Shown one piece after another: positions 149 through 26,055 of a stretch of 26,055 bases of DNA (position 1 is the stretch's first letter; each line of letters opens with the position of its first letter). This stretch comes from Thecamonas trahens ATCC 50062 (taxonomy: Eukaryota; Protista; Apusomonadida). The notes beneath the pieces were generated by a model that had not been told where the DNA came from, ran no database searches, and saw nothing but the letters and a program-made list of their open reading frames with translations. Where the stretch lies: positions 268,318-294,372 of the forward strand of contig NW_013657634.1 of assembly GCF_000142905.1 (NCBI RefSeq), read 5' to 3'. The translations under genes were made by a program, and so were the position numbers.

Positions 149-711
149 TGTGGGTGGTGTGCGGGTGGAGTATGGGTGGAGTATGGGTGGAGTATGGCGT
201 CGTCACGTGTTGCGGTCGTCATGGTGTGGCTTGTTGTTGATGATGATGGTGATGACCATGATGATGGTAATCATTATGATCTTTATGGCGACGATCATTC
301 ATAGGTTGTGGTACATGTAGTGGCTCTGTCGAGTGCGTGGTCTCCTATCACAGTGTCTGGTGCTGCGCTCCCGAGCGCTGGCTAGAGTGTAGCCTGGCTC
401 TCGACGCGGGGTATGGCCAAAGCTGCGACATGCACCGCATACTTGCTCTGCCATCTCCTTCTCCACCTTCTGTCGGTATTTGATCTCTGCTCTGCAGGCT
501 TTCTGACAACTTCTCGCGGCTAGAAGCGTACCTCCACCAGGCGATGATGATGATCATCACCCTACGGCAGTGATGGTGACGACGTCCTTCCAATCCTGTT
601 TGTGGTTGCAAGTAATCGAAAAAATGAACCCAGGAGAACGAATAGCAATGACAAAGGACCAAGTGGAGGGCGAGAGAGAGACAGAGCCACCACTCGACTC
701 CAGCCCGCACC

Positions 712-729
712 ATGTCGTCGCAGCCTTCG
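712..729 (+). CDS. MVP: Major vault protein, exon 1 (MSSQPS).
   Basis: ATG at 712, six codons, then GTACGC at 730. With the exon 2 junction this gives MSSQPS|VIRVPPFSYIHILD, which matches the vertebrate MVP N-terminus M-x5-IIRIPPYHYIHVLD in length and sequence. Confidence 0.75.
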
Positions 730-955
730 GTACGCAGCCACAGCACCCGCCCTCCCCACACATACGCACACACACAAGCACTACAAGCACTACACGCTAC
801 TCCCTCCCAACCTCCCCCCCTCCTCCCCCCCCTTTTACCCCATTCCCCCCCCTCCCCTCCTTCCCCCCCCCCTCGCCCCGTCCCCCTCCCCCTCCACCTG
901 GCAATGGAAAGAAAGCCCCTCAGCGTTCCTTCCACCCCTTCCCCACCCTCCACAG
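730..955 (+). other. Spliceosomal intron (226 nt, phase 0) in MVP. Donor GTACGC, acceptor CACAG.
   Basis: GT at 730-731 and AG at 954-955. The interior is pyrimidine-rich with a poly-C/CT tract at 820-900 and CA repeats at 760-800. Removing it restores the conserved MVP N-terminus in frame. Confidence 0.75.
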
Positions 956-3523
956 GTCATTCGTGTCCCGCCGTTCTCGTACATCCACATTCTGGATAAC
1001 AATGTCAATGTGACGTCGATTGTGGCAGGGCCGCGGACGTACACTCGCCCGGATCATGTCCGGGTTGTGCTGGGGCCAGAGAAGATGATTACCATTCCGC
1101 CTCGGCACTACTGTGTGGTGGGTAACCCGGTGGTTCGCGATGACGGGGGCAACCCGGTGGTGGACGAATACGGGCAGTACAAGCTGCGGTTTGGCGACGA
1201 GGAGGTCCGCGAGGCGCAGGACCGTTTCCCGCTGTACCCGGGCGAGTCGCTGGTGACAGGCGTGACGCAGATGCCGGTGATCGAGACGAACACGGCGATG
1301 CTGCTGCGGGCCAAGCGCGATTTTAAGCAGACGCTTGCCGACGGCGCGACTGTCGACCGCATTGCCGGTGAGGAGTGGCTTGTTCGTGGGCCGACCGTGT
1401 TCAAGCCGATGGTGGAGGCCGAGTATGTGCGGACGGTGGAGGCGACGGTGGTGCGGCCGAACCAGGCGCTGCGTCTGCGTGCACGGCGCGACTGCATCGA
1501 CGCCAATGGGGTGCAGCGGCGGACGGGCGAGGAGTGGCAGCTGCGGTCCGAGGGCGCATACCTGCCGTCCGTTCACGAGGTGGTTGTCGACGTTGTCTCG
1601 GCGTATGTGCTGACCGAGAAAACGGCGCTGCACCTTCGTGCGACGCGCAACTTTGACGACGCGCTCGGAGTGAGCCGCCGGGCCGGCGAGGAGTGGTTGG
1701 TCACGCTCGCCGACGCCGACCAGTACATCCCGGATGTGTACGAGGCTGTGGTGGGCCAGATCGAGATCACGACGCTGACGAACCGGCAGTACTGCGTGGT
1801 GGTGGACCCTGTCGACGCGAAGACCGGTCGGCAGCGGTTCGGGCACCGCGAGGTGCGGATCGGCGAGCGGTCGTTCTTCCTCAACCCAGGCGAGCGACTC
1901 GAGTCGGGCATCGAGGACGTGTACGTGCTCGGCGAGGACGAGGCGCTGGTGATCCGCGCCAACCAGGCGTTTGACGACGTGGTGGCGAGCCGCGGCGCCG
2001 ACGGGGCGGTGACCGAGACAACGGTGGCGCGGACGCCCGGCGACCTGTGGATGATCATGGGCCCGCGCGAGTACTTTCCGCGGGTCGAGGTCTCTGTTGT
2101 TGACGTCCGGCGGGCGATTCCGCTCGACGACAACGAGGGCATCTACGTCCGCAACATCACGTCTGGCGAGGTGACGGTTGTCTCGGGCGAGAGCTACATG
2201 ATCCGCGAGGACGAGGAGCTGTGGCGCAAGGAGCTGCCGGCCGACGTGGAGGCGCTGCTGGCCAACGCTGCGACGCGCGACCCGCTGGCAGACCGGCACG
2301 CCCGCGGCAACGACGACAACACCTCGGCGTCGGGTCGCGACATGACGCGGGCGGTGACGTTCCGGGTCCCGCACAACGCGGCGGTGCAGATCTACGACTA
2401 CAAGCTCAAGGAGTCGCGGGTGGTGTTTGGCCCGGACCTTGTACTGCTCCGGCCGGACGAGCAGTTTACGCCGATCTGCCTCTCGGGTGACAAGCCGAAG
2501 CGGCCGAACGTGATCAAGTCGCTCGCGCTGCTGCTCGGCCCGGACTTTGCAACAGACATCATCACGGTGGAGACGTCGGACCACGCCCGGCTCTCGCTGC
2601 AGCTCTCGTACAACTGGCACTTTGACGTCGACCGGTCGTCGCCCGAGTCGGTCCGCAAGCTCTTTTCGATCTCGGACTTTGTGGGCGACATGTGCAAGCG
2701 CATCGCGTCTCGGGTCCGTGGCGCTGTGGCGCAGGTTCCGTTTGACGTCTTCCACAAGACCTCGGCGACGCTCATTCCCGCGGCCCTGTTTGGGCAGGAC
2801 GACGAGGGCAACGTCGGCAGCTACTACAAGTTCCCGGGCAACAACCTGGTCATCACCTCGATTGACATCCAGTCGGTGGAGCCGGTCGACCAGCGGACGC
2901 GCGACTCGCTCCAAAAGTCGGTCCAGCTCGCCATCCAGATCACCACCGCCTCGCAGGAGGCGACGGCCAAGCACAACGCCGCCCGCGTCGAGCAGGAGGC
3001 CCGCGGCGCGCTCGAGCGCCAGCGCATCCAGGACGAGGTCCGCGCCGAGGAGTCGCGCAAGGAGCTGCTCTCGCTCAAGGCCCTCTCTGCCGCCGTCGCC
3101 TCGTCCGGCCAGGCCACCGCAGAGGCCAAGGCCCGCGCTGAGGCCGCCAAGATTGCTGGCGAGTCGTCGCTCGAGGAAGCCAAGCTCAAGGTCAAGGCCC
3201 AGGAGATCGAGTCCACCGCCGAGCTTGCCCGCCTCGTCGCCCACCAGAACGCAGAGGTCGACCACATGCGCAAGCTCAACGAGCTCGAGGTCGCCAAGGC
3301 CCGTGCAGAGGCCGACATTGAGACCAAGCGCTGGGTCGAGTCGGTCGCCGCCCTCGGCCCCGAGACCATCCGCGACCTTGCTCGCGCCGGCCCCGAGACC
3401 CAGGTCGCGCTCCTCAAGTCGCTTGGTATCTCGTCGGTCCTCGTCACCGACGGCAACTCGCCCATCAACCTCTTCAACACCGCCTCGGGTCTCATCGGCT
3501 CGGGTGCCGGCGCTGACCAGTAG
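956..3523 (+). CDS. MVP: Major vault protein, exon 2 (vault repeats, shoulder and cap-helix).
   Basis: Near-colinear matches to MVP: PPRHYCVV, FPLYPGE, ALRLRARRDC, TGEEWLV (repeated), NEGIYV, VPHNAAVQIYDY, LLLGPDF, DHARLSLQLSYNWHF, SVEPVDQRTRDSLQKSVQLAIQITT, and a coiled-coil C-terminus ending PINLFNTASGL. Stop TAG at 3521-3523. Confidence 0.92.
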   Translation, partial: VIRVPPFSYIHILDNNVNVTSIVAGPRTYTRPDHVRVVLGPEKMITIPPRHYCVVGNPVVRDDGGNPVVDEYGQYKLRFGDEEVREAQDRFPLYPGESLVTGVTQMPVIETNTAMLLRAKRDFKQTLADGATVDRIAGEEWLVRGPTVFKPMVEAEYVRTVEATVVRPNQALRLRARRDCIDANGVQRRTGEEWQLRSEGAYLPSVHEVVVDVVSAYVLTEKTALHLRATRNFDDALGVSRRAGEEWLVTLADADQYIPDVYEAVVGQIEITTLTNRQYCVVVDPVDAKTGRQRFGHREVRIGERSFFLNPGERLESGIEDVYVLGEDEALVIRANQAFDDVVASRGADGAVTETTVARTPGDLWMIMGPREYFPRVEVSVVDVRRAIPLDDNEGIYVRNITSGEVTVVSGESYMIREDEELWRKELPADVEALLANAATRDPLADRHARGNDDNTSASGRDMTRAVTFRVPHNAAVQIYDYKLKESRVVFGPDLVLLRPDEQFTPICLSGDKPKRPNVIKSLALLLGPDFATDIITVETSDHARLSLQLSYNWHFDVDRSSPESVRKLFSISDFVGDMCKRIASRVRGAVAQVPFDVFHKTSATLIPAALFGQDDEGNVGSYYKFPGNNLVITSIDIQSVEPVDQRTRDSLQKSVQLAIQITTASQEATAKHNAARVEQEARGALERQRIQDEVRAEESRKELLSLKALSAAVASSGQATAEAKARAEAAKIAGESSLEEAKLKVKAQEIESTAELARLVAHQNAEVDHMRKLNELEVAKARAEADIETKRWVESVAALGPETIRDLARAGPETQVALLKSLGISSVLVTDGNSPINLFNTASGLIGSGAGADQ

Positions 3524-5988: not shown

Positions 5989-6009
5989 GGAGGGGTGGAG
6001 TAGAGAGGT

Positions 6010-6125
6010 GTGTGGGTGGTGGGGGTGAGGGGGTTGGGGGTGGTGGGGGTCTTCGTGAATGTTGGTGCGTTGGTGGTGAGGTCAGCAGGGACGGGGGGGG
6101 GAGGGGGAGGGGAGGGGGGGGGGGC
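6010..6125. repeat. Homopurine G-tract (GGGGAGGGG-type) in the divergent intergenic region between the PDI-like gene and ALG9.
   Basis: Runs of GGGG..GAGGGGGAGGGGAGGGGGGGGGGGG at 6088-6125 and a G-rich stretch at 6010-6050. The same motif recurs at 1-10, 18786-18825 and 25992-26029. Confidence 0.85.
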
Positions 6126-6144: not shown

Positions 6145-6184
6145 ACATACATACATACATACATACATACATACATACATACAT
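6145..6184. repeat. Microsatellite (ACAT)x10.
   Basis: Direct tetranucleotide repeat. Confidence 0.95.
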
Positions 6185-8379: not shown

Positions 8380-8396
8380 ACGCGCGGTGCTTACCG

Positions 8397-9824
8397 TCAG
8401 ACCCAGACATGCAGGCCGGCCGACGACGCCGTGGCCAGCGCCACGTTGCGGGCGGTGAGCGCGAGCACGTCTTCGCCGCGGGCCACCCTGCCCTTGGCCG
8501 TCTTGGGAATGCCGTACGTCGCAGTCGGCGTGGTCACCTCGCCCGCCAGCCAGCTCGCCATCGGCACAGCCGCCACCGTTCCGTCGTACGAGACGCTTGC
8601 AAGGCTGAACGCGTTGCCCGCCAGCGATGAGACCGCCGAGCTGTGGTACCGCGCGTTGACCGTCGGCCCGGCGTGCGGCGCCCGCGTGTCGATGGCGTAC
8701 ACGGCATTGTGCGGACGGCCGACCGAAACAACCAGCGTTTGACCATCGCCGCTCGACGAGAGAATCGGCAGCTCGAGTGCGTGGACGCCTGCGGCGAGGG
8801 CCAGCTCGAGCGCAGGCTCGCGCGCTGGTGCGCGCAGGTCCCAGCACCGCACGTACTTGTCGAGCGAGCCCGAGTAGAGGACCGATGGTGCCGCCGGATC
8901 AAAGGCCAGTGCGCGGACCGAGCCGCGATGCGGAAGCGTCCGCAGAGCGGCGTCGGGCGAGTTGACGTCAAACACCAGCGCCGAGTTGTCGTCCTGCCCA
9001 CCGCCCGACACGACCCATGGCCGCTGCGCACACGCCGCGAGCGCAAAGACCGAGTCGGCATGGCCGGTCAGAGTCGCCACCGGCGACGCAGTCTCCAGAT
9101 CAAACACTAGTGAGCCGCCCAGCTGGCGACCGAGGCCGAGCGCCACCAGACTCGGCGCGCCCGGCAGGAGACACATCGAGTTGACGGCGTCGCGGTCGGC
9201 AACCTGGACTGCGGTCGGGACGAGCTCGACTGGCGAGCGCCGCCCACGGTCGCCACGGGTACTGCTCCGATTACTTAGCGGTGTGGTGAGGAGCACGCCG
9301 CGCTTGCATCCGGCGAGCAGTACGTCCATTGCCGCGTGATGGGCCAGGCAGCGGGCGTGGACATCGTCAGCCAGCGCCACTCGCTCCATGGATGCGGCGG
9401 CGTCCGGACGCGCCAGCCGGCTCAGCACCCGCATGGTAAGCCCGTACCGAACAAACCACTCGCTCTCGCGAGAGTCGCTGTCCTCGTCACGCCCATCAGA
9501 GCCGCCACTCGTCACGCATCCGTCGCCCATCAGCGGCGCAAGCTCGCAGGCGTACCGTCGTCGCCACAGTAGCGAGTCGGTAGCGAGCCGGCGCCAGTCG
9601 CGCGAGGCGCAGGAGAGGGCAAGGAGGTCACGAGTCGGCAGAAACTCGCAGATGTACAGCCTTAGCTCGTCAGGAAACCGGTCTATCATTGTGGTGGTTG
9701 GAAACGACGTCCAGCCGCTCTTGGGGCTCTCGGTGTGGCGACGAGTGGCTCTGTCCGTGGATGGGATCGGCCGGCGGAGGCGGGCGACAGGGATCCGAGC
9801 CGATGCAGCTATCGCCATAGTCAT
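8397..9824 (-). CDS. F-box / WD40-repeat protein.
   Basis: An F-box-like region FPDELRLYICEFLPTRDLLALSCASRDWRRLATDSLLW sits near the N-terminus. WD-like blades follow, for example VFALAA..RPWVVSGGGQD and GSVRALAFDP...LYSGSLDKYVRCWDLR. The start could instead be the in-frame ATG at complement 9687-9689 (MIDRFPDEL). The stop lies 17 bp from the ALG9 stop. Confidence 0.7.
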   Translation of the reverse strand: MTMAIAASARIPVARLRRPIPSTDRATRRHTESPKSGWTSFPTTTMIDRFPDELRLYICEFLPTRDLLALSCASRDWRRLATDSLLWRRRYACELAPLMGDGCVTSGGSDGRDEDSDSRESEWFVRYGLTMRVLSRLARPDAAASMERVALADDVHARCLAHHAAMDVLLAGCKRGVLLTTPLSNRSSTRGDRGRRSPVELVPTAVQVADRDAVNSMCLLPGAPSLVALGLGRQLGGSLVFDLETASPVATLTGHADSVFALAACAQRPWVVSGGGQDDNSALVFDVNSPDAALRTLPHRGSVRALAFDPAAPSVLYSGSLDKYVRCWDLRAPAREPALELALAAGVHALELPILSSSGDGQTLVVSVGRPHNAVYAIDTRAPHAGPTVNARYHSSAVSSLAGNAFSLASVSYDGTVAAVPMASWLAGEVTTPTATYGIPKTAKGRVARGEDVLALTARNVALATASSAGLHVWV

Positions 9825-10110
9825 GATTAGTCGTTGCCCATGGTTAGTCGTTGCCCATGGTTAGTCGTTGCCCATGGTTAGTCGTTGCCCATCATCAGTC
9901 ATTGCCCATCATCAGTCGTTGCCCATCATCAGTCGTTGCCCATCATCAGTCCTTGCCCATCATCAGTCCTTGCCCACCATCAGTCATTGCCCATCATCAG
10001 TCGTTGCCCATCATCAGTCGTTGCCCATCATCACTCGTTGCCCATCATCACTCGTTGCCCATCATCACTCGTTGCCCATCATCAGTCGTTGCCCATCATC
10101 AGTCATTGCC
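9823..10110. repeat. 17-bp minisatellite of about 17 tandem copies (consensus CATCATCAGTCGTTGCC, with variants CATGGTTAG.., ..CACTCG.. and ..GTCCTT..).
   Basis: Exact 17-nt periodicity across 288 bp. It starts at the F-box/WD start codon and ends about 100 bp before the myosin ATG. Confidence 0.95.
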
Positions 10111-10139
10111 GCCATTCCAACGGCCCAACACCACGTCAC

Positions 10140-10200
10140 TGCCACCACCACACACTCACACACACACACATCCACAAACACACACACACACACATCCATA
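10140..10200. repeat. Imperfect (CA)n microsatellite immediately upstream of the myosin ATG.
   Basis: The sequence reads cacacactcacacacacacacatccacaaacacacacacacacacatcc. Confidence 0.85.
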
Positions 10201-10208
10201 CACATACC

Positions 10209-13200
10209 ATGTCGACCCTCCAGATAGGTGACATGTGCTGGGTGGAGAACCTGGCAGCAGGTACTAGCGGAGGAGAGCAGGCCTCCCATGGCCACCACCC
10301 GTCGCGAGTGGCAGGCAAGGTCCTCGCCGTCTCGGACTCGATGGTGACGGTGGCCCCAGAATGGGGCGAGCTCTGTCCGACCTGTGCCCTCAAGCCGGAG
10401 CATACGCCTGCTCATCGTCCGGCAAAGGTCAACGTTCCGCTGGGAAACTCGGCAGACGCGGGCCAGCTCGCCGTGAGTGTCATGGACACGTCCAACGCCG
10501 AGGGGAGGGCAGACATGATGGAGCTGGCTGATCTGGCGGTGGGCGAGCTGATGTACAACCTGAGGTTGAGGTACAAGGCCCAGCCCATGCAGTTCTACAC
10601 ATATGTCGGGGACATCCTGGTTGTCGTCAATCCCATGGCGGACATGGGCGTCTCTGGCGAGGAGACAAAGGCTACGTACGCCGGCCTGCCGTTCCGCGAT
10701 GCGAGCGCCCCGCCGCACATCTACGCCGTCGCCGAGGCTGCCCACAAGGCGCTCGCCGAGACGGCCGCTCCGCAGGTCATCGTCATCTCGGGCGAGTCTG
10801 GCGCTGGCAAGACATACGCCACCAACGACGTGCTCGACTTTCTGGCCTACCGCGGCAGCGGGTGCGACCCAGCTCCTGCTCCCGGTCCTAACGCTGGCGC
10901 TGCTCCTTCTCCGCCCGGGGCGGAGATTGTGGCCAAGATCCGGGCTATCTCGGGCGTCATTGAAGCGCTGGGCAATGCCAAGACGTCGCGGAACCACAAC
11001 TCGTCGCGGTTTGGCAAGCTCGTCAAGGTCCAGTTCGACGAGGCCGGGGCCATCGAGGGCGCCGCGCTGCAGACGTACCTACTGGAAAAGTCGCGGATTG
11101 TCGACCAACAGCCCGGTGAGCGCAACTACCACATCTTCTACCTCATGTTCCAGTTCCTCGACCGCGGTGAGCGGTCGGCGCGCGGTCTCTCGGACTCGGT
11201 CGCGGACTACCCGTACCTCGTCGGCTCGCACGGCAAGAACGCCAAGTCATGGCAGTACATGCCTAGCGATCCGTCGGCGCCGCAAGCCGGGCTCGAGCCC
11301 ATGGCCGACGCCAAGCGGTGGGAGGCGTTCATCGACGCTGTTGTCACGCTTAACCTCGAGGACGATCTCTCGTGCGTGTGGGACACGCTCGCCGCCATCC
11401 TGCACCTCGGCACGCTGACTTTTGAGGAGCACGCTGGCTCTTCGACCGGCTTTTGCACCGTCTCGCCGCCTGGAGTTGTCTCGCGCATTGCAGGCCTCCT
11501 CGCTGTCGACGCCGACGCTCTGGCCACCAATCTGCTCTCGTGCGAGGTCGTCAACATGCGCCGTGCGTACCGACCCGACAAGGCCAAGCAGACCGCCGAC
11601 GCGCTGGCCAAACTCCTTTACGCCTCGCTCTTTGACGTCATCATCGAGCACATCAACGCGTCGATCAAAACCGGCTTCACCCGCCGGTGGATCGGCGTCC
11701 TCGACATCTTTGGCTTTGAGTCGTTCCAGTCGCTGCCGGACAAGCACGGCGTGCCCGACACCGCCAACCGGTTTGAGCAGCTCTGCATCAACCTCACCAA
11801 CGAGCGCCTGCAGCGGTTCTTCTACGACCAGCTCATTCCCAAGCAGCTCGCCCACTACGCCGACCACGGGCTCGACGTCGACGCCATCGAGTACGACGAC
11901 AACACCCTCTGTGTCAACCTCATCATGGAGGGCCGCAAGTCGCTCTTTGGCGCCCTCAACAACGCCACCAAGGAGGCTGCCACCCTTCCGGCCTTCCGCA
12001 ACAACCCGGAGCTTGCCGAGCGGCGCTGGGTCGAGACCATCAAGTCGACGTACAAAGGCGGCAAAGGCCGTCTCGCGCCCTCGACCGTAGTCCGCAAGTC
12101 CTCGCCCGACGAATTTGTCGGCTGGTTTGATGACAAGCTTGACTCGCGGGCCCACACCCAGTTTGCCGTCCACCACTACGCTGAAACCGTGTGGTACACC
12201 GTCGACGGGTGCGTCGAGAAAAACGCCGACAAGATTGCCCCCGAGCTTGTCACGCTTGTCTCGTCCTCATCGGCCGCCTTTGTCGCCGGCCTTTTTGATC
12301 CGGACCGCCTCGAGCTCAACACCTCGGTTGCCGACAAGTTTGCCGAGCAGCTGCGGGCACTCGTCTCGCCGGCGTCGTGGAACGTGCCTGGCCACCCGTC
12401 GGGCATGCTTGACCTTGCAGCGGAGCCTTTTTTCGTTCGCTGCGTCAAGCCAATCTGCTCGCGGGTGCCCGGCATGCCGCGTGCGCCGCTCTCCAACCAC
12501 AAGGTGCTCGACCAGCTGCGGTCCGCCGGTATGTACGCGGTCATCCAGATGCGGCTTGCCGGCTATGCGTCTGAAGTGGACAAGGCCCAGTTTGTCGAGA
12601 CCTACACCGAGCTTGTTGACGACATGGCAGCGTTCAACTCACTCTCGCTTGACAACCAAGTCCGCTCCATTTGTGCATCCGTCGTCGCCTCTACTCAGCA
12701 CGACTTGACAAGCGAATCCGGCATGGCGCCGTACCAGATCGGCAACTCAAACCTGGTCTTCCTCAAGGACGCCATGAACTACGCCCTGCGCGACGCGCTC
12801 GCTGCGGCTCGCGCGGCGCGTGCGGCCAAGCAAGCGCTGGCGCTCTCGCATTTTGCGGCGCTTTTCTCGATGTGGAGCGTCCGCCAGTCGATGCCGCGGC
12901 TGGTGCAGGTCTACGAACAGAACCAGGAACGCCTCGAGTTTATCCGGACCCGCATCGAGGGTGGTGCAAGCGAAGCAGAGGCCAAGGCCGCATGGGACGC
13001 CGAGCTCGCCACCCGCGCCGCGGCCATGGAGGCCGAATACAAGCTCGAGCATTTTATCCCGCTGCAAAAGGCCGCCGCCGCCGAGCCAGTCGACAAGCTC
13101 GACGCCGCCATTGCCAACATGCTCAAGGACGAGCCAGCCGGTGAGGCGCGCGCGGCTCTCGAGGCTAGGCGCAAAGCGCTGAAGGCATCGGCCAAGGCGG

Positions 13201-14846
13201 TTAACGCCGCGCTTGCTGCGCTCGAGGCCGACGTGTACAACGCCGAGGCCGAGACCGCTGCCGCAGACGCCATTGCTGACCTGGACGCAGTTGTTCTCGC
13301 CGAGGAGGCCGCGTATGCAGAGGACGTCAAGCGGCGCGAGGCGGCCGCCGCTGCTGCTGCTGAAGCCGCGTACATTGCCACGCATGTGACGTCGGTGGAG
13401 ACTGCGGCGAACGCGGTGCCGTTCGCCAAGGTCAAGGCCGCACTCACGGCGTTTGGCAAGCGGCATGCCAACATCCTCGGCAAACGCGAGAACCTTGAGA
13501 GCGCACTCCATGCTCATGGGGCCTCGCTCGACGACGCTCGCGCAGCGCTTGAGGCGCGGCTGGACGAGTTGCGGGCAAGCCCGCATTCAGACGAAGTGCA
13601 AGCCGGGGTGGCGACGGCGCTATCGGCGCTCGAGGTGCTCGTTGGCGGCGTCCACGAGTTCCTGCGGCTGATGGAGGAGCGCGTGGCGATGGCAGCGGCG
13701 GCGGAGGAAGCCAAGGAGCGCAAGCGCGAGGCGCGGCGCAGAAAGCGTGAGGCGCGCGAGGCACGGAAGCGCAAGCTGCTGGAGGCGCGGCAGGCCATGC
13801 TCTCGGCGCAGGAGCGAGTGGCCGCGGAGCGGGCGGCGGAGCGCAAGCGGCAGGAGGAGGCCAAAAAGCGGGCGGTGAAGCTGCTCAAGAAGAAGCAGAA
13901 GCGGCGGCTGCGGTGGTTCGAGACAGCAAGCGTGGCCATGGACGGCCTGCGTGTCTTGTTCCACCATGCCGAGGCCACGGTGCGGTACCTTGGCCCGCTG
14001 CCGTCGGCATCGGTCAACCTCCTCACGGCGCCCTACTACATCGGGCTGGAGATGCCGTATCCGTCGGATTTGTTCAACTCGGGTGACTACGAGGGTACGC
14101 AGCTGTTCGAGTGCTCGCCGGAGCATGGCATGTTTGTGGCGCAGGACTTGGTCTCGGTCCTGGTCGCCAGCGACGAGCTTCGCGCCGGCGAGCGGCATCT
14201 GCAGGTCGGCGACCGGGTGTGGCGGCGGAACCATGTTCCGCTGCAGACCGGCGTCATCATGTACTACGGTGAGACTCACTTTGACGAGGGCCCGTTTGTG
14301 GGCATCGCCCTCGACCAGGCCGGCTCTGGCACCAACTCGGGCCGGGTCCACGGCTTCAAGTACTTTAAGTGCGCCAAGGACTCGGGCCTGTTTCTGCGGC
14401 CAGAAGAGCTCGAGCGGATAGAGCCGTGGTCGCACTCTGTCGTCAAGGAGCGAACCAACGAGTACATGATTCTTAACGACATTTATCTCGACGACGACGA
14501 GTACTCGGAGTACGATGGTGACGAGGAGGATGGGACCAGCTCGCGGGCCAGCTCACGGCCGGCGTCGGGTGACGACTCGTCGTCGGGCGCGGTCTCCGAG
14601 ACCGTTCTAGACGCCATGGATCCCGACGAGCTCTACGCGCTTGCCGGTGGCGATGCCATGCTGACCGACGGCGCGTCTGAGCCGCTCTCGTCGGGAGTGC
14701 GGCTCAAAAAGTCACGGCTCTCGCGGCGCGGATCGGGCGCCGGTCGGTCGATGTCGATGCGCAATGTCGAGACAGCGCGGAGTGGACATCTAGTGCCGCC
14801 GATGCAGCGGGCGGCGTCGTCGCGAAACCGGATGCGCCGACGGTAG
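10209..14846 (+). CDS. Myosin heavy chain (motor domain, ~600 aa coiled-coil/charged tail, C-terminal CAP-Gly domain).
   Basis: Motor motifs are the P-loop GESGAGKT (10791-10814), switch I NSSRFGKLV, switch II LDIFGFE, LRLRYKA, and an HIFY-type relay. The tail is rich in A/E/K/R heptads. The C-terminus carries a CAP-Gly signature LQVGDRVWRR..GVIMYYGETHFDEGPFVGIALDQAGSGTNSGRVHGFKYFKCAKDSGLFLRPEEL (~14196-14430). The start is taken as ATG 10209 (MSTLQIGD), after the minisatellite. The upstream part of the ORF track entry 9885-14846 is a translated repeat. Confidence 0.9.
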   Translation: MSTLQIGDMCWVENLAAGTSGGEQASHGHHPSRVAGKVLAVSDSMVTVAPEWGELCPTCALKPEHTPAHRPAKVNVPLGNSADAGQLAVSVMDTSNAEGRADMMELADLAVGELMYNLRLRYKAQPMQFYTYVGDILVVVNPMADMGVSGEETKATYAGLPFRDASAPPHIYAVAEAAHKALAETAAPQVIVISGESGAGKTYATNDVLDFLAYRGSGCDPAPAPGPNAGAAPSPPGAEIVAKIRAISGVIEALGNAKTSRNHNSSRFGKLVKVQFDEAGAIEGAALQTYLLEKSRIVDQQPGERNYHIFYLMFQFLDRGERSARGLSDSVADYPYLVGSHGKNAKSWQYMPSDPSAPQAGLEPMADAKRWEAFIDAVVTLNLEDDLSCVWDTLAAILHLGTLTFEEHAGSSTGFCTVSPPGVVSRIAGLLAVDADALATNLLSCEVVNMRRAYRPDKAKQTADALAKLLYASLFDVIIEHINASIKTGFTRRWIGVLDIFGFESFQSLPDKHGVPDTANRFEQLCINLTNERLQRFFYDQLIPKQLAHYADHGLDVDAIEYDDNTLCVNLIMEGRKSLFGALNNATKEAATLPAFRNNPELAERRWVETIKSTYKGGKGRLAPSTVVRKSSPDEFVGWFDDKLDSRAHTQFAVHHYAETVWYTVDGCVEKNADKIAPELVTLVSSSSAAFVAGLFDPDRLELNTSVADKFAEQLRALVSPASWNVPGHPSGMLDLAAEPFFVRCVKPICSRVPGMPRAPLSNHKVLDQLRSAGMYAVIQMRLAGYASEVDKAQFVETYTELVDDMAAFNSLSLDNQVRSICASVVASTQHDLTSESGMAPYQIGNSNLVFLKDAMNYALRDALAAARAARAAKQALALSHFAALFSMWSVRQSMPRLVQVYEQNQERLEFIRTRIEGGASEAEAKAAWDAELATRAAAMEAEYKLEHFIPLQKAAAAEPVDKLDAAIANMLKDEPAGEARAALEARRKALKASAKAVNAALAALEADVYNAEAETAAADAIADLDAVVLAEEAAYAEDVKRREAAAAAAAEAAYIATHVTSVETAANAVPFAKVKAALTAFGKRHANILGKRENLESALHAHGASLDDARAALEARLDELRASPHSDEVQAGVATALSALEVLVGGVHEFLRLMEERVAMAAAAEEAKERKREARRRKREAREARKRKLLEARQAMLSAQERVAAERAAERKRQEEAKKRAVKLLKKKQKRRLRWFETASVAMDGLRVLFHHAEATVRYLGPLPSASVNLLTAPYYIGLEMPYPSDLFNSGDYEGTQLFECSPEHGMFVAQDLVSVLVASDELRAGERHLQVGDRVWRRNHVPLQTGVIMYYGETHFDEGPFVGIALDQAGSGTNSGRVHGFKYFKCAKDSGLFLRPEELERIEPWSHSVVKERTNEYMILNDIYLDDDEYSEYDGDEEDGTSSRASSRPASGDDSSSGAVSETVLDAMDPDELYALAGGDAMLTDGASEPLSSGVRLKKSRLSRRGSGAGRSMSMRNVETARSGHLVPPMQRAASSRNRMRRR

Positions 14847-14849
14847 CAG

Positions 14850-17602
14850 TTAGGGCGTAAAACAGGTCTCCAGATGAAAGTGGTAGTCGACGAGCGACGT
14901 GGCCGAGACGGCAGTGGTGGCGGCGTAGACGGCCGAGGCGAGCGAGGAGTTACCAGAGAAGAAAACGCCGACAGCGGCGTTGGGCCGGGCGAGAAGGCCC
15001 GAGTCGGAGACCACATCCTCGGCGTCGAGGTAGGAAAAAGCCGGGCCATGTCGGGCCGACCGCGGATGACGGTAAAAGGGAGCGCAAGAAAGACGTCGCG
15101 GGTGACAAAGAGGCGAACGTCGAGGGTGAGATCAGGCTCGTGGATAGAGGTGTAGAACTGGGACTCGAGCACCTCGAGCACGTCCTGGAACCAACGGAAC
15201 GAGTCGAGGTCGCGGCAGACCCACCAAAAGTGGAGATGCTTGAGTGGGAGAGCGAGACCGTGCTGGAGCCGGAAAATGATGTCGGAGAGGACGGCGGCGT
15301 AGGGAGTGACCCCGATGCCGGACGCGATGAGGACGGCGCGGTGGTAGGAGAGATACGGGTGCGGGTCCGAGCCAAACGGGCCCGCGACGTAGAGCCGGAG
15401 CGATGACGCCGGTGACGTCGGGTCCTCGATGCCGGACGCGGAGGACTCGGCGAGCGCGTAGACCTGACGGGTCCAAGAGTCGCGGGCGCCGACAGCCTTA
15501 AAATACACGTGCACGTGCTCCATAAGCGGCGAGGAGGCGACCGAGAACGGATGCCACTGCAGCTTGGAAATGCTTGGTAGGTGGAGGTGGACGTAGTCGC
15601 CGAGGGCGAGGGCGCGCGTCATGCGCGCCGACTTGACAAAGGCAACATGGACGACCGATCCCGGGAGCGCGTCGAGCGCGACAATGCGGGCGTCGGCGAG
15701 CGCGTGTGGCGCCGAGATGCCGCGCGCAATGAGGTAGAGAAGATAGCCCGGTGCGATGTAGTAGAGGGTACGGAGGGTGGTGGGATGCGCGACGAGGAGG
15801 AGCGGGAGGACGAGCGCGAGCTGATGTGGGTAGTAAAAGACCTCAAAGGCGATGCGGCGGATCTTCGGGTGTGCAAGCGGGACAATGGCGAGCATCAGAA
15901 GGAGGAGAAGGATGCCGGAGAGGCCGAGCCAGGTCGAGAAGACAATGGTGAGCGGCGAGTTGTGGGTGCGAAAGGCGGCGAGCGGGGTGCCCGGCGCAAA
16001 GGCCAGGTCGCGATCAGCCTGCGATGCAGCGGCAGTGCGAAAGGCGTTGACAACGTGAGCAGCGGTGTGGCCGAGAGCGCAGGCAAAGGTGGCCACTCCG
16101 CCGAGCCGATGGAAGAGCATCATGTGCTCCTGTGAGGGCCGGAGCCAGAGCGTGGCGGAGCGAGGCATGCGCGGCAGAAAGACTCGAACGACGGTGGTGT
16201 AGGTGGCGAGGCAGACCGGGAGAAAGAGAAACGCGACGCCGACGCGGATACCCGCGGCAAAGACCTTGGCGGCAACGAGCGAGGCACCAAGAATGCGGTG
16301 TGCTGCGTAGGAGCGGGCGATACGCGCGATGTAGACTGACTCGAGGGTGACAGCAAGGCAGATGAGGGCAAGCCAGAGGCAAAACGCTGGGTCGAGCTTG
16401 GCATGCATGCGGGCGGTGGAAGCGGCGGCGGCGACCGAGGCCCGGAGCGATGCGAGGTGCGAGGTCGCCGGCGCCGCGCTGGATGCCGAGCCGGAGATGC
16501 CGTAAGAGGCGAGTCGGGCGAGAACGCCTGCGGGCAGGTCTGTGGCAGTGGCGAGTGAGCTCCACTGAGCCGGCTCGAGGGCGAGAACGTCGCCGACGGT
16601 GGCGAGCTCCTGGAGCGCAAACTGTGCCATCCAGAGTTTCGCGCGCTCACGGCCGACGTTGGGTGAGAGCTTGAGATCCTCGGCGACAGCGAGGAGGGCG
16701 GCCAGAAGCGGTGCGTCTGGTGAGAAGGCGACTGTCGAGTATGTGCGGTGGGTTGTGAGCCAGGATCGCCACTGGCGAGTGGTGGGTGTAGCGTGGATGT
16801 GGAGGGTGAGCTCGGTGGCATGCTCGAGCTCGCCCCAGGTAAAGGCGGAGATGAAGCGCGGCCAGTCAAGGACGATGCTGCCGACCGGACGGGTCGGCGA
16901 GGCCGGCGACGAAAACGAGATGGCGCGCGAGCGCGAGAGGCTCGGGGAGAAGGCCTCGTTGTCGGCGGCGACCGAGGAGGCGAGCCACGAGCTGTGGATC
17001 TCGGCGACGAGATCGTCGCCAGCGAGGGCAGCGCCGCCGGGAGCGGCAAGAATGAGATGCGGGATGTTGCAGAGGGTGGCGAGGGAGAGCTCAGCGCCGG
17101 CTGTGGTGGAGCCGGCTGCCATGAGGAAGACAAACATGAGGCGGAGCTTCTGTGGCGCCTCGCCAGCAAAGGCCGAGGCAAAAGCGAGAAACTCAAGGAG
17201 TGGGACGGAGGGAGCGCGGGACGAGAGGCGCTTCTTCTTGGAGGGCGGTGGCGGGCGAGCGAGAATGGCGAAGAGGAGATCGACGGTGGAGGAGGCCGCA
17301 TCCCAGCCCGTCAGTCGGGCAAAGGCACGGCGGGAGAGGCGGTAGGTGAGGTTCGATGCGATGGCAAAGACGTGGGCCCAGCGCTTGATGAGCGAGTCGG
17401 GGCGGAAGACCCAGGCAGTGGCGACGCGAGTCATACCGCGGCCAAAGCGGAGGATGCGGCGACGCATGCCGGTGATAGGACAGACGCCCGTGGAGACGCC
17501 GAGCATGGCCTTTGCCGACTCGAGGGCGATGGATGCGTTCTGGAGGCTCCGCCAGTAGCTCGCAGCCGAGGCATCAAGTAGAGGCCTCTGCGCCGTGAGC
17601 AT
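14850..17602 (-). CDS. NADPH oxidase / ferric reductase (NOX/FRE) family protein with a ~400-aa N-terminal extension of unknown function. The C-terminal ~60 aa are read in a -1 frame relative to the long ORF.
   Basis: A TM region carries heme-ligand histidines (HRLGG..GHTAAHVVN, YYPHQLAL). FAD-binding HPFS is at about + 15545-15560. NADPH-binding GIGVTPY is at about + 15291-15311, with CRDLDSF. GRPDMARLF resembles NOX GRPNWDNEF. In the other frame, AAVGVFFSGNSSLASAV...DYHFHLETCFTP-stop matches the NOX2 C-terminus [15 protein letters not shown]...HFIFNKENF with the same spacing. The frames switch at the A5 run at + 15035-15039. The stop (TAA, complement 14850-14852) lies 3 bp from the myosin stop. 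Confidence 0.85.
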
Positions 17603-18785
17603 CAGCCATAGAGGAGGCCCAGACGGAACCCAGCGTCTCTCGTATACCCTCTAGCGACTCGGTCCGTCTTGTCCGTCCTCTTCGCTCTGAAAGCTGCCCT
17701 CCTCTCGGCAGTCGGCTGCGCCGACCTGCTGATGACGACGATGACGACCGCGCCCAAATCGAGCCGTGGTCGTTGCTTTTGTCGTTGTAGCCATCGTTGT
17801 TGCAGTCATCGCCGTTGCCTGCTGGCTGGGCCATCTGCTGCCGATTCGATACCGTCTCGCGGTGCCTCAGTCTGCGATCTGTCGATGGCTTCATCTGCTT
17901 GCTCTTGGACCGAGTCTGGTCGCTGGCATGCGCACTCGTCACCTGTGACCTCCCTCCGTTTGCTGCCGGTTGTGTATGCAGAGATTCAGTGCTCCAGCTC
18001 GAGGTCGACGAAGCCATCACGGCTCGAGTAGAGGGGTGTCCGAGTTGGGTGCGACGGGCTACACCTGTCGAGTCGCCAGGACTGGCGGCGTGCGGATGGC
18101 GCCTTGGCAGCTCCGACTGTGTCGACACAGTTGGCTCGTGAGGAGCAGGAGCTCATCCATCCCGCCCGTTGATGACGATCCATGATGACGATCATGATGG
18201 GTGTCTTCTTGGCGGCCAATTCCTACCTTGATCGCATGCGTACGCAAGCATGTGGGTCATCCGTGCCAAGCGGCAGCTGCACGGATGTGCTGGCATAGAG
18301 GCTGATGAGACCGTCGAGCCAGCGGATCGACCACTTGGCCGGCAACCAATGGTGTGGCCAGATCAGCTGGTAAACATCGCTGCTCACTCGGGTGCTCATG
18401 TGTCAGCACAGAGTCACCTCATCGCTTGCGAGAGGTCATGCCCGACTGCCGAGTGCCGAGTGCGCGGGCAGAGTTTGGTCAGCAGCCGGCCGCTTCCCGA
18501 GCCGGAGCCACATACACGCACACCCTTGACACTTGACGCAGGCGGGTACACACTTGACGAGATATGTCTGCAAGAGGTAGTGGAAGCTCTGCATCGGCGT
18601 CTGGGTGGTGCCTGCCGACGGCGGCAGGCTCTGGTTGGGCCTTCTGGAAGGAGGTCAAGGCCGACAAGCACAGGCTGTTCACCATGCAGAAGCACAAGAG
18701 CCATGGCAAGTCGAGGTTCTCGGCTTTGGCGTCATCGGTTACCGTATGTGAGTGTGTGTATGGGGGAGGAGTGGGAGGAGTGGGA

Positions 18786-18825
18786 GGGGGGGGGAGGGGG
18801 GGGGGGGGGGGGGGGTGGACTCATG
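18786..18825. repeat. Poly-G / GGGAGG homopurine tract.
   Basis: The sequence is gggaggggggggggagggggggggggggggggggggtgg, followed at 18837-18905 by a (GGTGAT/GGTGGT)n microsatellite. Confidence 0.9.
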
Positions 18826-21284: not shown

Positions 21285-21347
21285 TGGCAGCTGGTAGCTG
21301 GCAGCTGGTAGCTGGCAGCAAGTAGTTGGTAGCTGGCAGCTGGTAGC
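21285..21347. repeat. 14-bp tandem repeat (TGGCAGCTGGTAGC)x~4.5. Each unit carries a CAGCTG E-box palindrome.
   Basis: Direct repeat 275-340 bp upstream of the ATG at 21622. It is followed by a GCAGC-rich stretch and a (CA)n tract at 21470-21512. Confidence 0.85.
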
Positions 21348-21478
21348 CCGCAGCAGCCCCAGCAGCGGCAGCCGGCGGCCGGCAGAGCCAACCGGCAGCC
21401 GTTCCCCAACGACCTCACCGCCCGACCCCACCACTCTCACAGCCCAGGGACCCACCCCGCCACACCCACGCACACCCA

Positions 21479-21510
<32 letters not shown>

Positions 21511-21621: not shown

Positions 21622-24600
21622 ATGGACAGGAGCCGAGACAGGGAGGGGGGGAGCAAAGGGGAGGGGGGTACCATGTCCATGAACAAAGACGGGATGGGCA
21701 TGGGCATGGGCGTGGAGGCGGACATGGACATGGCCACGGAGGCGGGCGTGGACGTGGGCGCGGACATAGGCTTGGACACGGGCATCGTAACGGGCACGGA
21801 GGCTGGCATTGTCAGGGGCGCAGACACGGGCATGGATGTGGCTCTCACGCCGCCGACTGTGGACCACGTCCAGGCAACAGGTCGGGCCCTGGTCGATGTG
21901 GTTAAGCAACAGGCAGAGGAGATCAAGGTGCTCAAGGCTCAACTGGATGGTGCCAACCGGCAGCTAGTGTTGGCGGAGGAGGAGAAAGGCGCTGTCAAGC
22001 AGCTGCTCGTCAAGACGGAAGTCAACTTGGCCAACCAGGTCGCGGCCAGAAAGACGCTGGCCAAAAGAGTTGTCGCCGTCTTGGATGCTCTCCGGACTGG
22101 CGTTCTTGATCTGGCACATGTCACCGCGGCGCTGATGGATGGTTGCTCTCCTGAGACTGATGAGACTGTGTCGGGGGAAGACATTGTCGAGCCCGTTGCC
22201 GAGAATCGGCCGCAGATGCGTAAGTGGCGGCAGGGCACGTCAGGATTCAAGACCTCGCCGGCACTGGAGAAGCTCAAGGCACGTCAAGAAGCGATGCGTA
22301 AGCAGCGCGCGGCGGCGGCAGCAGCCGCTGACGCCGACGCCGACGCCGACGATGGCGACGGCGATGGCGATAGCTCCGACTCTTATGGTTCGGTTGTCGA
22401 GCACGACGATGAGCCTGCAGCCGAGGTCAAGACCGAGGCTCGGCCACAGATGCGCAAGTGGCGGCAGGGCACGTCAGGATTCAAGACCTCGCCGGCACTG
22501 GAGAAGCTCAAGGCACGTCAAGAAGCGATGCGTAAGCAACGCGCGGCGGCGGCTGCTGCCGCCGCCGACGCCGACGCCGACGCCGACGATGGCGACGGCG
22601 ATGGCGATAGCTCCGACTCTTATGGTTCGGTTGTCGAGCACGACGATGAGCCTGCAGCCGAGGTCAAGGCCGAAGCTCGGCCACAGATGCGCAAGTGGCG
22701 GCAGGGCACGTCAGGATTCAAGACCTCGCCGGCACTGGAGAAGCTCAAGGCACGTCAAGAAGCGATGCGTAAGCAACGCGCGGCGGCGGCTGCTGCCGCC
22801 GCCGACGCCGACGCCGACGCCGACGATGGCGACGGCGATGGCGATAGCTCCGACTCTTATGGTTCGGTTGTCGAGCACGACGATGAGCCTGCAGTCGAGG
22901 TCAAGGCCGAAGCTCGGCCACAGATGCGCAAGTGGCGGCAGGGCACGTCAGGATTCAAGACCTCGCCGGCACTGGAGAAGCTCAAGGCACGTCAAGAAGC
23001 GATGCGTAAGCAACGCGCGGCGGCGGCTGCCGCCGCTGACGCCGACGCCGACGCCGACGATGGCGACGGCGATGGCGATAGCTCCGACTCTTATGGTTCG
23101 GTTGTCGAGCACGACGACGGCTCCGAGTCAGCCGACTCGGTTGTCGAGCACGACGACAAGCCTGTTGGCGAGACCCGCTCATGGCGTGCAGGCTTCAACA
23201 CGTCGCCAGCACTCGAGCGGCTGACCGAGACACGGAGCGCCGCTGCGGGCAGAGTACACCCTGCGGCCAACGCCGGAGGCACTGACGATGCTGCAAAGCC
23301 GGTCGAGCGCCCGCAGATGCGCAAGTGGCGCCAAGGCACCACAGGATTCAAGACCTCGCCGGCGCTAGGGAAGCTCAAGGCGCGGCAGGAGGCTATGCGC
23401 AAGCAGCGCGCAGCTGCGGCTGTGGCTGCGACTACGGCTGCTGTCGCTGACGCGGACGCTAGTGATGACTCGGACTCGTGTGGCTCGGTTGTCGAGCGCA
23501 GCTCCGAGGGCTCGAGCTCGGCGGGCTCGATGGTGGACAACGGCTCGCCAGCGCCGCGCGAGATCCTCGGTCTTCCAGCCGAGTCCCCGCCGAACCGCCG
23601 CGCCGGGCGGCCCGAGTCGCTGCGCGACCGACGCCTGCGGCTGCGCAACACCCGGCGGGCGACGTCGTCGGACCACACCATGGACGCGGCCATGCGCGCC
23701 GCCATGCTCCGCGCCGGCCGCACCATGTCGGCGTCGGCCGCCGAAGAGCGGTTCGAGGAGCAGCAGAGCCAGTCCGAGCTCGAGGCTGCAGCCAACGCTG
23801 CGCACAATGAGGCGAACTCGACAACGCTCTACGACAGCAGCAGCGACGGTGATGACGATGTCATCGTCGTCAATGCAGCTACGAGTGGCATCGCCAGAGG
23901 CCACTCCTGGCTCGACGTCGAGCGCCCGCGCGGCGAGGCCATCGACTTTGAGCACAAGCCCAATGCCCGCGGCCTTAACGTCTCGTTCTCGTCGAACCTC
24001 TCCCACATCTTCGGCGAGACGTCATCCGACGACGACGACGATGTACCCGACGCCAGCGCCACCACTGCCGAGCTCTTGCGGCAGCTGGTCGAGGCTCGCA
24101 AGGAAAACATTGATCTCGCGCGAACGGTCTCTGAGCTCACGCTCGAGGTGAGCCGGCTGACGCAGTCACTCACCGCAGCCTCGGCGGCGAAAGCGTCATT
24201 GGCTGCGGGCGCGGGCCTCATAGTTGCAGGCGTGCAGACCGAGCCGCGGATTGTGGACAACGTGGCGGTGCAGACGCTCCCGCCTGACGTCGCCCATGTG
24301 AGTGTGCAGACCGAGGTGGAACGCGACGGCGGGCCGGTGAGTGCGGCTGGAGCCAGCAACGTCAAGCTCGACGAGCTCTCGTCGCAGTTGCATCTGGCGC
24401 AAGCGCAGAACGAGGAGCTGATGCGGATGCTGCGGTCGCCGTCGCTCTCGCTCTCGCCGATGCCGCGGTCCCCGTCGGCAGCGTCGCCTCTGACGCCTGT
24501 GACGGCGCGGGCGCGGTCCTCGTTCTCGCGCTCGCCGTCGCTCACGGGATCATCGCCGGTCCCGCTCGACTCGCCGGCGCGGGCACGGGCGCGGGCAGCG

Positions 24601-24666
24601 TTTGAGCGGCGGCTGGCGCGGACAGCGCGGTACGTCCACCAGCAGGAACTCCGACCTCTATCGTAA
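21622..24666 (+). CDS. Novel low-complexity coiled-coil protein with four near-identical 79-aa tandem repeats (RPQMRKWRQGTSGFKTSPALEKLKARQEAMRKQRAAAAAA-DADADADDGDGDGDSSDSYGSVVEHDDEPAAEVKAEA) and a fifth degenerate copy.
   Basis: A 1014-codon ORF. It carries in-frame 237-bp units at 22207, 22441, 22678 and 22915, with more than 97% nucleotide identity. A diverged copy sits at about 23311-23500. The N-terminus is a degenerate 12-nt periodic G/D/M-rich region (21706-21850). Heptad coiled-coil segments flank the repeats. The C-terminus is S/P/R-rich. I recognise no conserved domain. The start codon is uncertain. Confidence 0.6.
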   Translation: MDRSRDREGGSKGEGGTMSMNKDGMGMGMGVEADMDMATEAGVDVGADIGLDTGIVTGTEAGIVRGADTGMDVALTPPTVDHVQATGRALVDVVKQQAEEIKVLKAQLDGANRQLVLAEEEKGAVKQLLVKTEVNLANQVAARKTLAKRVVAVLDALRTGVLDLAHVTAALMDGCSPETDETVSGEDIVEPVAENRPQMRKWRQGTSGFKTSPALEKLKARQEAMRKQRAAAAAAADADADADDGDGDGDSSDSYGSVVEHDDEPAAEVKTEARPQMRKWRQGTSGFKTSPALEKLKARQEAMRKQRAAAAAAAADADADADDGDGDGDSSDSYGSVVEHDDEPAAEVKAEARPQMRKWRQGTSGFKTSPALEKLKARQEAMRKQRAAAAAAAADADADADDGDGDGDSSDSYGSVVEHDDEPAVEVKAEARPQMRKWRQGTSGFKTSPALEKLKARQEAMRKQRAAAAAAADADADADDGDGDGDSSDSYGSVVEHDDGSESADSVVEHDDKPVGETRSWRAGFNTSPALERLTETRSAAAGRVHPAANAGGTDDAAKPVERPQMRKWRQGTTGFKTSPALGKLKARQEAMRKQRAAAAVAATTAAVADADASDDSDSCGSVVERSSEGSSSAGSMVDNGSPAPREILGLPAESPPNRRAGRPESLRDRRLRLRNTRRATSSDHTMDAAMRAAMLRAGRTMSASAAEERFEEQQSQSELEAAANAAHNEANSTTLYDSSSDGDDDVIVVNAATSGIARGHSWLDVERPRGEAIDFEHKPNARGLNVSFSSNLSHIFGETSSDDDDDVPDASATTAELLRQLVEARKENIDLARTVSELTLEVSRLTQSLTAASAAKASLAAGAGLIVAGVQTEPRIVDNVAVQTLPPDVAHVSVQTEVERDGGPVSAAGASNVKLDELSSQLHLAQAQNEELMRMLRSPSLSLSPMPRSPSAASPLTPVTARARSSFSRSPSLTGSSPVPLDSPARARARAAFERRLARTARYVHQQELRPLS
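22207..23118 (+). repeat. Coding minisatellite: 4 x ~237-bp near-identical tandem units inside the CDS 21622-24666.
   Basis: Units 2 and 3 differ by about 1 nt (gcagccgag versus gcagtcgag). Unit 1 is 3 nt shorter. Confidence 0.95.
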
Positions 24667-24715
24667 ACACGTGCACTGCAGCGTCGTGTGTGAGCGGGTG
24701 GATGTGAAGTGGTAT

Positions 24716-25707
24716 TTACTCGGAAGCAGCAGGCGCCTCGGCAGTGGCCGCAGCCTCGCCATCAAGCGTCTTCTGCTTCTTGGCGGGCGCCGCGCCGTCG
24801 TCGCCGGCTGCGGCGTCGTCCTCGGCCTTGCGCTTGGGGGCAGCGTGCTGGATGCCCTTGGCGCCCATGCGCGAGATGCGGCCGCGGACGCGGGCCTCGA
24901 CAACGCCGTGCCAGTACTTGGTCTCGGCCTCGCCGTCGACAACAGCAACAGCAAAGACCTTGTCGGCCAGGGTGCGCTTGGTATCGTCGGTGGAGAGGTC
25001 GGCGACGGCGGCGGCGGCGACAGGGGCGGCGAAGCGGATGTAGCCCTCGGTCTGGCCGCGCGAAAAGTCGACGCGCTGGACGTCGCCATAGGCGCGGAAG
25101 ATGGGGAGCATGTCTTCGCGGGAGATGCCCTCAGAGGCCAGCTCGGTCACGTGAACAACACAGCCGGGGATGACGTCAAAGGCGGCGATCTCAGCGGCAA
25201 CCTCGGCAGCGATGGCCTCCTCGGTCGGCGGCGCAGCGGCAGCCTTGGATGCGTTGCGGCGCTCGATCTTCTTGGCGCGGGCACGGGTGAGGTAGTCGAG
25301 CTTCATCTCCATGGCCAGCGGCTCCAGCTCGGGCGCAGCGCGGATCTCCTTGGCAATGATGGCCTTGGCCTCGTCGACGGTGGCAAACTCGACAAAGGCC
25401 GAGCCCTTGAACAGATGGGTCTGCGGGGTGCGGCGGAGGCGGACGGAGAGCACCTTGCCGTGCTCAGCAAAGAGCTCGGTGATCGACTCGATGGTCGTCA
25501 CCTCACCATCACGAACAAAGCCCTTGGCGTAAATCGACCGCTCATCGATGTCGAGCTTGGCCGGCAGCGGCTGAGCCCGACGGACGTTCTTGCCGTCGTC
25601 CGAGACAACCAGGGCGTCCGACTCGCCCAGAGCCGCCGCCAGGGCCTCGTTGTCGAGTCCCATCTGCTGCACACGCTTGAACTTGGCGAGCTCCTCAAGA
25701 GGAACAA
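24716..25707 (-). CDS. La protein (La motif + RRM + C-terminal basic NLS), exon 2.
   Basis: After splicing the protein reads ..NSDG-F-VPLEELAKFKRVQQ, which resembles the La motif ..KLDEGWVPLEIMIKFNRL. An RRM follows (SIYAKGF...KGSAFVEFATVDEAKA), then a second RRM-like region and a KRK/KKQK tail. The stop lies 49 bp from the stop of the repeat-protein gene. Confidence 0.85.
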
Positions 25708-25990: not shown

Positions 25991-25991
25991 G

Positions 25992-26029: not shown

Positions 26030-26055
26030 AACGGAGAGAGGGCGTACGCAGTGCA

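Follow-up and report, generated by a model that had tools for sequence, protein, structure and literature searches.

A 17-unit minisatellite between the divergent F-box/WD40 and myosin genes of Thecamonas trahens

Tandem repeats in promoters, among them those of yeast (Vinces et al. 2009, reviewed in PMC3899988), are a documented class of nucleosome-poor, length-variable elements, and the TA repeat of hifA/hifB is a repeat-controlled bidirectional promoter of a bacterial contingency locus (PMC3899988). Here we describe a tandem array of 17 units of 17 bp in the protist Thecamonas trahens ATCC 50062. The array lies between two divergent genes, one for an F-box/WD40 protein and one for a myosin, in a 26,055-bp stretch of contig NW_013657634.1 (positions 268,318 to 294,372), which was analysed as a whole, is called the window below, and supplies all coordinates. 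Human promoter repeats reportedly act as expression quantitative trait loci, and the variable number tandem repeat (VNTR) upstream of the human insulin gene, the INS-VNTR, has a G-rich unit of 14-15 bp that forms G-quadruplexes.

The array shares features with each of these systems. Like the promoter repeats of yeast and human, it is tandem, sits just 5′ of start codons in upstream regions enriched in repeats, is unstructured and might vary in length through slippage; compared with the typical yeast repeats, its unit is longer (17 bp) and less AT-rich (53% GC). With classical VNTRs such as the INS-VNTR it has in common a unit of 10-60 bp, strict head-to-tail order, ordered variant blocks and a position upstream of a gene, whereas it differs from the INS-VNTR in having one GGG per 17 nt and no canonical G-quadruplex motif. 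As at hifA/hifB, a tandem repeat lies between divergent genes and a change in copy number would alter spacing for both, although the array is eukaryotic, has a 17-bp unit and comes with no defined spacing-sensitive elements. The array is an ordinary minisatellite, and a clean intergenic example of one in a compact, GC-rich protist genome with repeat-rich upstream regions. Our analysis points to non-coding, locally expanded DNA whose role is probably passive at most.

Structure of the array

The array occupies 289 bp, in which 17 units with the + strand consensus CATCATCAGTCGTTGCC follow one another head to tail in the CAT register with 0 indels. Tandem Repeats Finder (TRF) called it at 9829-10110, with a period of 17, 16.6 copies, 95% matches, 0% indels and a score of 438. 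A search of the window with the consensus at up to 3 mismatches returned 17 matches against 0.10 expected by chance (at most 1 in any of 100 dinucleotide-preserving shuffles), and none of the matches in the 26 kb fell outside the array. Exact copies of the consensus make up 5 of the 17 units. Together with the Pfam assignments of the neighbouring genes, these results bear out the first-pass annotation, which had proposed a 17-fold array of a 17-bp unit between an F-box/WD gene and a myosin gene. Two parts can be distinguished within it:

9822-10110, no strand: minisatellite, 17 units of 17 bp (TRF, register listing, pattern search)
9822-9889, no strand: variant block A, units 1-4, one CATGATTAG and three CATGGTTAG (unit listing, pattern search)
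9890-10110, no strand: core block, units 5-17, of the CATCATCAG type (unit listing)

Ordered variant blocks had been described for the array, and this stands in part: the three CACTCG units are present (units 13-15), whereas the opening block, previously read as four copies of CATGGTTAG, has the composition given above. Also within the core block, TCCTTG marks units 8-9, and TCATTG, which changes CpG to CpA, marks the non-adjacent units 5, 10 and 17. On the − strand, the core block reads CTGATGATG in most units, CTGATGGTG in unit 10 and GTGATGATG in units 13-15. The earlier expectation that the array would place many ATGs in a 5′ untranslated region (UTR) on either strand holds for the − strand, which has 31, and fails for the + strand, which has just 4, one in each of units 1-4. 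Within the array, ATG and TAG on the + strand are confined to these four units, the most distant from the myosin gene, and units 5-17 contain zero ATGs and zero stop codons on that strand. This asymmetry is not evidence of selection, since about three quarters of random 17-mers lack an ATG on a given strand.

Neither strand of the array is structured. Single-strand folding is weaker than in shuffled controls by a z of +3.2 for the + strand (minimum free energy −4.7 against −14.1 kcal/mol) and +4.7 for the − strand, and all 200 shuffles fold at least as well. Hairpin, cruciform and structured-RNA readings were rejected on these grounds. A canonical G-quadruplex or i-motif was taken as at least four runs of three or more G (or C) with loops of at most 7 nt. 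No such motif occurs on either strand, where a single GGG or CCC per unit would leave loops of 14 nt, and ViennaRNA with G-quadruplexes enabled predicted none in the array.

Local duplication and the repeats of upstream DNA

Variant units are clustered along the array. Neighbours differ by a summed Hamming distance of 15, whereas permuted unit orders average 33.6 and reach a value as low in 2 of 100,000 permutations; for units 5-17 alone the corresponding values are 10 and 15.4 (p ~0.009). The mean distance between units also climbs with lag: it is 0.94 at lag 1 and reaches about 2.3 by lags 6-8. This positional clustering, together with the dependence on lag, supports the growth of the array by stepwise local duplication, as first proposed. 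We infer that the starting material would have been CAT-rich simple sequence, which is common in upstream regions of the T. trahens genome, and that blocks of 1-3 units were repeatedly duplicated through replication slippage or unequal exchange, a process that would leave identical variants side by side and degraded copies at the margins of the array. The commonest recurrent change is G to A at the sole CpG of the unit (TCGTTG to TCATTG; units 5, 10 and 17), as is expected of unconstrained mutation. Unit size, head-to-tail order and variants that reflect local duplication are those of a minisatellite or VNTR, and the position is promoter-like or 5′ intergenic, between start codons at 9824 or 9689 on the − strand and 10209 on the + strand.

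Repeats are frequent in the upstream DNA of this window. TRF, run with the same settings throughout, found tandem repeats over 26.5% of the six 5′ intergenic regions, each of which has 14-63% coverage, and over 3.4% of the remainder, from which one large coding repeat was left out. The array is therefore the largest instance of a common upstream feature, drawn in part from the usual simple-sequence vocabulary of the genome. One survey notes an abundance of GC-rich simple sequence repeats in T. trahens (PMC6387519). The other repeats called by TRF in these upstream regions are the following:

100-161: GTGGTGTG, 8 copies
6145-6184: (ACAT)10
21285-21401: 7-mer of the GGCAGCT/GGTAGCT type, about 17 copies
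21461-21510: (CA)25
845-892, 6093-6124, 18782-18815 and 25995-26028: poly-C/poly-G tracts of 32-48 nt, in four 5′ intergenic regions

Several of the poly-C/poly-G tracts satisfy the canonical G-quadruplex motif. The 7-mer array and (CA)25 lie just 5′ of the open reading frame (ORF) that starts at 21622, in a layout like that of the myosin gene (array, CA tract, ATG) with an unrelated unit.

What the 17-mer shares with other upstream DNA in the window is limited to simple-sequence words. In 5′ intergenic DNA the word CATCATC reaches about 10 times its density elsewhere (10 hits in 3.6 kb, 6 in 22.1 kb), and CCATCATCA, a CAT-repeat word, is the sole 9-mer of the unit that another upstream region contains. 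Across the window's five remaining upstream regions, nothing of the unit beyond the word CATCAT is repeated; the best gapped similarities to it, at z 2.8-3.4, are marginal and due to simple-sequence words. In the region 5′ of the NOX-type gene, positions 17727-17820 combine triplet simple sequence of the GAT/GAC type with CATCGTTGTTGCAGTCATCGCCGTTGCC, which loosely resembles two 17-mer units (gapped score 22; 3 of 200 shuffles score equally). This likeness probably reflects shared simple-sequence vocabulary and not a true copy. A search with one and a half units gave 0 matches in JGI metagenomes (exact and degenerate patterns), prokaryote genomes and viral contigs, and a literature search on tandem repeats, minisatellites, bidirectional promoters and transcription start sites in Thecamonas found nothing specific.

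The divergent spacer and possible roles of the array

The proportion of the spacer taken up by the array depends on the gene model for the F-box/WD40 protein. Between the first ATGs of the two ORFs there are 384 bp (9825-10208), which confirms the divergent spacer proposed in the first-pass annotation and its domination by the array (289 bp, 75%). With the public F-box start at 9689, the spacer is 519 bp, the array makes up 56% of it and the start codon is untouched by the array. The (CA)n tract said to follow the array is also present, although it is imperfect and separated from the array by a 38-bp gap. The parts on either side of the array are:

8397-9824, − strand: F-box/WD40 gene, as a 475-aa ORF from the first ATG (protein match, Pfam)
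9690-9821, − strand: stretch between the array and the annotated F-box start (public start M46, codon score, GC content lower at first than at second codon positions)
10111-10148, no strand: unique or degenerate right flank (local alignment, sequence reading)
10149-10208, + strand: CA-rich, G-free tract up to the myosin ATG, an imperfect (CA)n (TRF, base count)
10209-14846, + strand: myosin gene (ORF list, frame and stop analysis, Pfam)

Promoter sequence proximal to the myosin gene may lie in the right flank. One decayed stretch there, GCCCAACACCACGTCACTGCC, resembles the unit and matches it at 16 of 21 aligned positions, a weak similarity that 16 of 200 shuffles equal in score. TRF called the CA tract at 10149-10194 with a period of 2 and 81% matches, and the 60 nt upstream of the myosin ATG contain no G at all. 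Comparable C-rich or C/A-rich tracts, nearly free of G on the sense strand, occupy the 60 nt 5′ of the ATG in the PDI-like gene (5989-6048, − strand, 0 G) and the La gene (25991-26055, − strand, 4 G). A general rule of C-rich sense-strand leaders was considered and not used as evidence, because the other genes of the window lack such a tract.

Our preferred reading is that the array most likely has no sequence-specific role. At most, it would serve passively, as unstructured DNA of variable length that keeps apart two unique segments close to the promoters, 9690-9821 on the F-box side and 10111-10208 on the myosin side. We infer from the start codons that transcription of the F-box gene probably begins between the array and the gene, since any leader that crossed the array would carry 31 upstream AUGs, each with a TGA soon after it to terminate a mini-ORF. 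A myosin leader that started within units 5-17 could be free of AUGs and unstructured and run into the G-free, CA-rich tract. None of the findings presented here points to control of expression by the array, and the functional ideas put forward in the first-pass annotation drew no support from our sequence comparisons. Rotational positioning of nucleosomes uses the 10-10.5 bp helical repeat; a 17-bp period yields only 17/k bp (17, 8.5, 5.7), none of which is near that value. Nor does any result show the unit to be a transcription-factor site or promoter core; within the 26-kb window, only CATCAT recurs upstream of other genes. By eye, the unit did not match the AP-1, Myb or YY1 consensus sequences.

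Several observations weigh against a purely passive minisatellite. No variation occurs at 10 of the 17 positions of the unit, among them an unbroken TTGCC block; this is as compatible with constraint as with a young array. The TRF score of 438 is far above that of any other non-coding repeat in the window (110 or less). TCAGTC, present in every core unit, matches the Drosophila-type initiator TCAGTY, a match at chance level once several motifs have been tried, and a lead only. Finally, the T. trahens DNA searched comprised the 26-kb window, and the 17-mer could be a dispersed motif. The main alternative is that the array is a multimerised cis-regulatory element, in which each unit would be a factor-binding or initiator-like site and the whole a copy-number-tunable enhancer or bidirectional promoter for either or both genes. 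The array is placed exactly in the spacer of two divergent genes and occupies 56-75% of it, and the invariant positions and initiator-like TCAGTC could be read in the same way. Tandem repeats in promoters are, moreover, known to modulate expression (PMC3899988). We nevertheless consider this idea unlikely. Nothing of the unit beyond CATCAT was found upstream of the other genes in the window, the metagenome, prokaryote and viral collections hold zero copies, and invariant positions are equally expected of a recently expanded array. Successive sites would be 1.62 helical turns apart and so on different faces of the helix. The other upstream regions carry unrelated repeats (the 7-mer in 17 copies, (ACAT)10, poly-G/poly-C), which indicates a general tendency to form repeats rather than a specific motif. 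The stronger proposal, that the 17-mer is a genuine regulatory unit and the array a copy-number-tunable bidirectional promoter through which an apusomonad would regulate an F-box/WD40 ubiquitin-ligase adaptor together with an unusual myosin/CAP-Gly motor, is in our estimation very unlikely. Were it true, the array would be a eukaryotic counterpart of repeat-controlled divergent promoters, and if it set the expression of both genes, the tuning of bidirectional promoters by repeats could be studied in a simple natural setting, in a lineage near the opisthokonts.

The remaining explanations concern RNA, protein and assembly. It is quite unlikely that the array lies within the myosin 5′ UTR, with a transcription start site in or upstream of the core block and an effect exerted through the RNA, such as better translation from an unstructured, AUG-free, C/A-rich leader. 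The absence of ATG and stop codons from the + strand of units 5-17, the weak folding of that strand and its continuation to the ATG through the G-free, CA-rich tract, of a kind that precedes two other genes of the window, would all suit such a leader; freedom from ATG is, however, what a random 17-mer shows most of the time, units 1-4 do contain ATGs, and the database holds no Logan or other transcript-derived protein for either gene. An assembly artefact, whereby the array or its copy number would come from mis-assembled repetitive reads, is most improbable: although a sole assembly of one strain is available, the 289 bp show an ordered, non-periodic pattern of variants and unique flanks on both sides, and an array shorter than a Sanger read can be assembled unambiguously. 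Hardly credible, finally, is an encoding role, either as a C/D-box-like small RNA from the − strand, with CUGAUGA in each unit, or as a repetitive N-terminal extension of the myosin. In Rfam no family reached threshold for the array; three sub-threshold − strand matches to archaeal box C/D small RNA families (14-16 bits against gathering scores of 39-42, E 0.2-0.7) are explained by the CTGATGA of each unit. A box C/D RNA was rejected, because it would have to score above its family's threshold and show distinct C, D′, C′ and D boxes with guides no shorter than 10-12 nt. In each unit the D-like CUGA overlaps the C-like UGAUGA, and the distance from one box to the next is only 10 nt, which is incompatible with a K-turn or K-loop; a terminal stem is lacking too, and shuffled sequences fold better than the − strand. 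From 9885 on, the myosin frame is open on the + strand. A coding repeat was nevertheless rejected as well, with no in-frame ATG between the stop at 9879 and 10209 and a codon log-odds score of −0.386, typical of non-coding DNA, against a coding mean of +0.38. Both encoding readings are refuted as far as sequence analysis allows.

On present evidence, the passive, locally expanded minisatellite that we favour is of little significance. As a candidate marker of length polymorphism it may help to type Thecamonas isolates, and it flags an uncertain start codon in the adjacent F-box/WD40 gene, AMSG_09425.

Flanking genes and other features of the window

The − strand ORF at 8397-9824 is 100% identical to AMSG_09425 (KNC53120.1 / XP_013754787.1), which is placed on a 304,656-bp scaffold, and Pfam assigns it an F-box at aa 47-91 and WD40 repeats. 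Its first ATG (9824; CAT at 9822-9824) falls within unit 1 of the array. The public model has 430 aa and starts at M46 (9689), directly before the F-box. The claim that the first unit overlaps the F-box/WD start codon is therefore dependent on the gene model, holding for the 475-aa ORF and not for the public one. Positions 9690-9821 either add 45 codons to the N-terminus of AMSG_09425 or serve as its 5′ leader and proximal promoter. GC content at the three codon positions of these 45 codons is 0.51/0.73/0.71, against 0.72/0.56/0.80 in the remaining gene, so that the first position lies below the second, in contrast to most of the gene body. The 45 codons score 0.015 in codon log-odds, where coding windows average 0.38 and out-of-frame windows −0.58; this value is below 99.4% of the coding windows of other genes and above 99.5% of out-of-frame windows, and 4 of 26 windows in the F-box gene body are equally low. 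The protein database contains no relative of the F-box protein above 36% identity other than itself.

The myosin ORF starts at 10209, the first in-frame ATG downstream of an in-frame TAG at 9879, and encodes a myosin motor (aa 102-849) followed by two C-terminal CAP-Gly domains according to Pfam. CAP-Gly is a microtubule plus-end binding module. A 100%-identical protein is absent from the database of 5.8 billion proteins, in which the best match is a 43% paralogue, AMSG_02296, and the search results contain no annotated protein of this locus. Because no identical protein is present, the myosin gene may be absent from, or differently modelled in, the public T. trahens proteome. The protein database holds no orthologue of either flanking gene, so there is no orthologous spacer with which to compare the array.

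The other genes of the window encode major vault protein, a PDIA6-like thioredoxin protein, an ALG9-like mannosyltransferase, a ferric-reductase/NOX-type oxidase, a DUF726 protein and La protein. Genes lie on both strands, with convergent pairs nearly spacerless and divergent spacers of 0.4-1.4 kb. A coding tandem repeat at 22206-23381, within the + strand ORF at 21622-24666, has a 237-bp unit in 3.9 copies (97% identity, TRF score 1712) and a more diverged continuation of period 474 to 23381. Its product consists of RPQMRKWRQGTSGFKTSPALEKLKARQEAMRKQRAAAAA repeats followed by acidic stretches rich in D and G, and the protein has no Pfam match.

Some of the single-ORF models appear to be incorrect. 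The convergent myosin and NOX-type ORFs overlap by 214 bp (14633-14846), the match of the NOX-type ORF to the NAD_binding_6 profile (region 15100-15340) is confined to positions 4-62 of 156, and that of the La ORF to the La-domain profile (region 25700-25900) to positions 2-30 of 59. On the basis of these partial matches and the overlap, the NOX-type and La ORFs probably read through introns, and the single-ORF models are probably wrong there. In the region 602-1100 (+ strand), the major vault protein ORF has no ATG upstream of its conserved N-terminal part, its listed start is GTG and its translation crosses C-rich and CA-rich simple sequence; the true start probably lies in an upstream exon, or the 5′ end is unusual. 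The stop-to-stop spacers of two convergent pairs measure 17 bp (8380-8396) and 49 bp (24667-24715), so that their 3′ UTRs must overlap the neighbouring gene.

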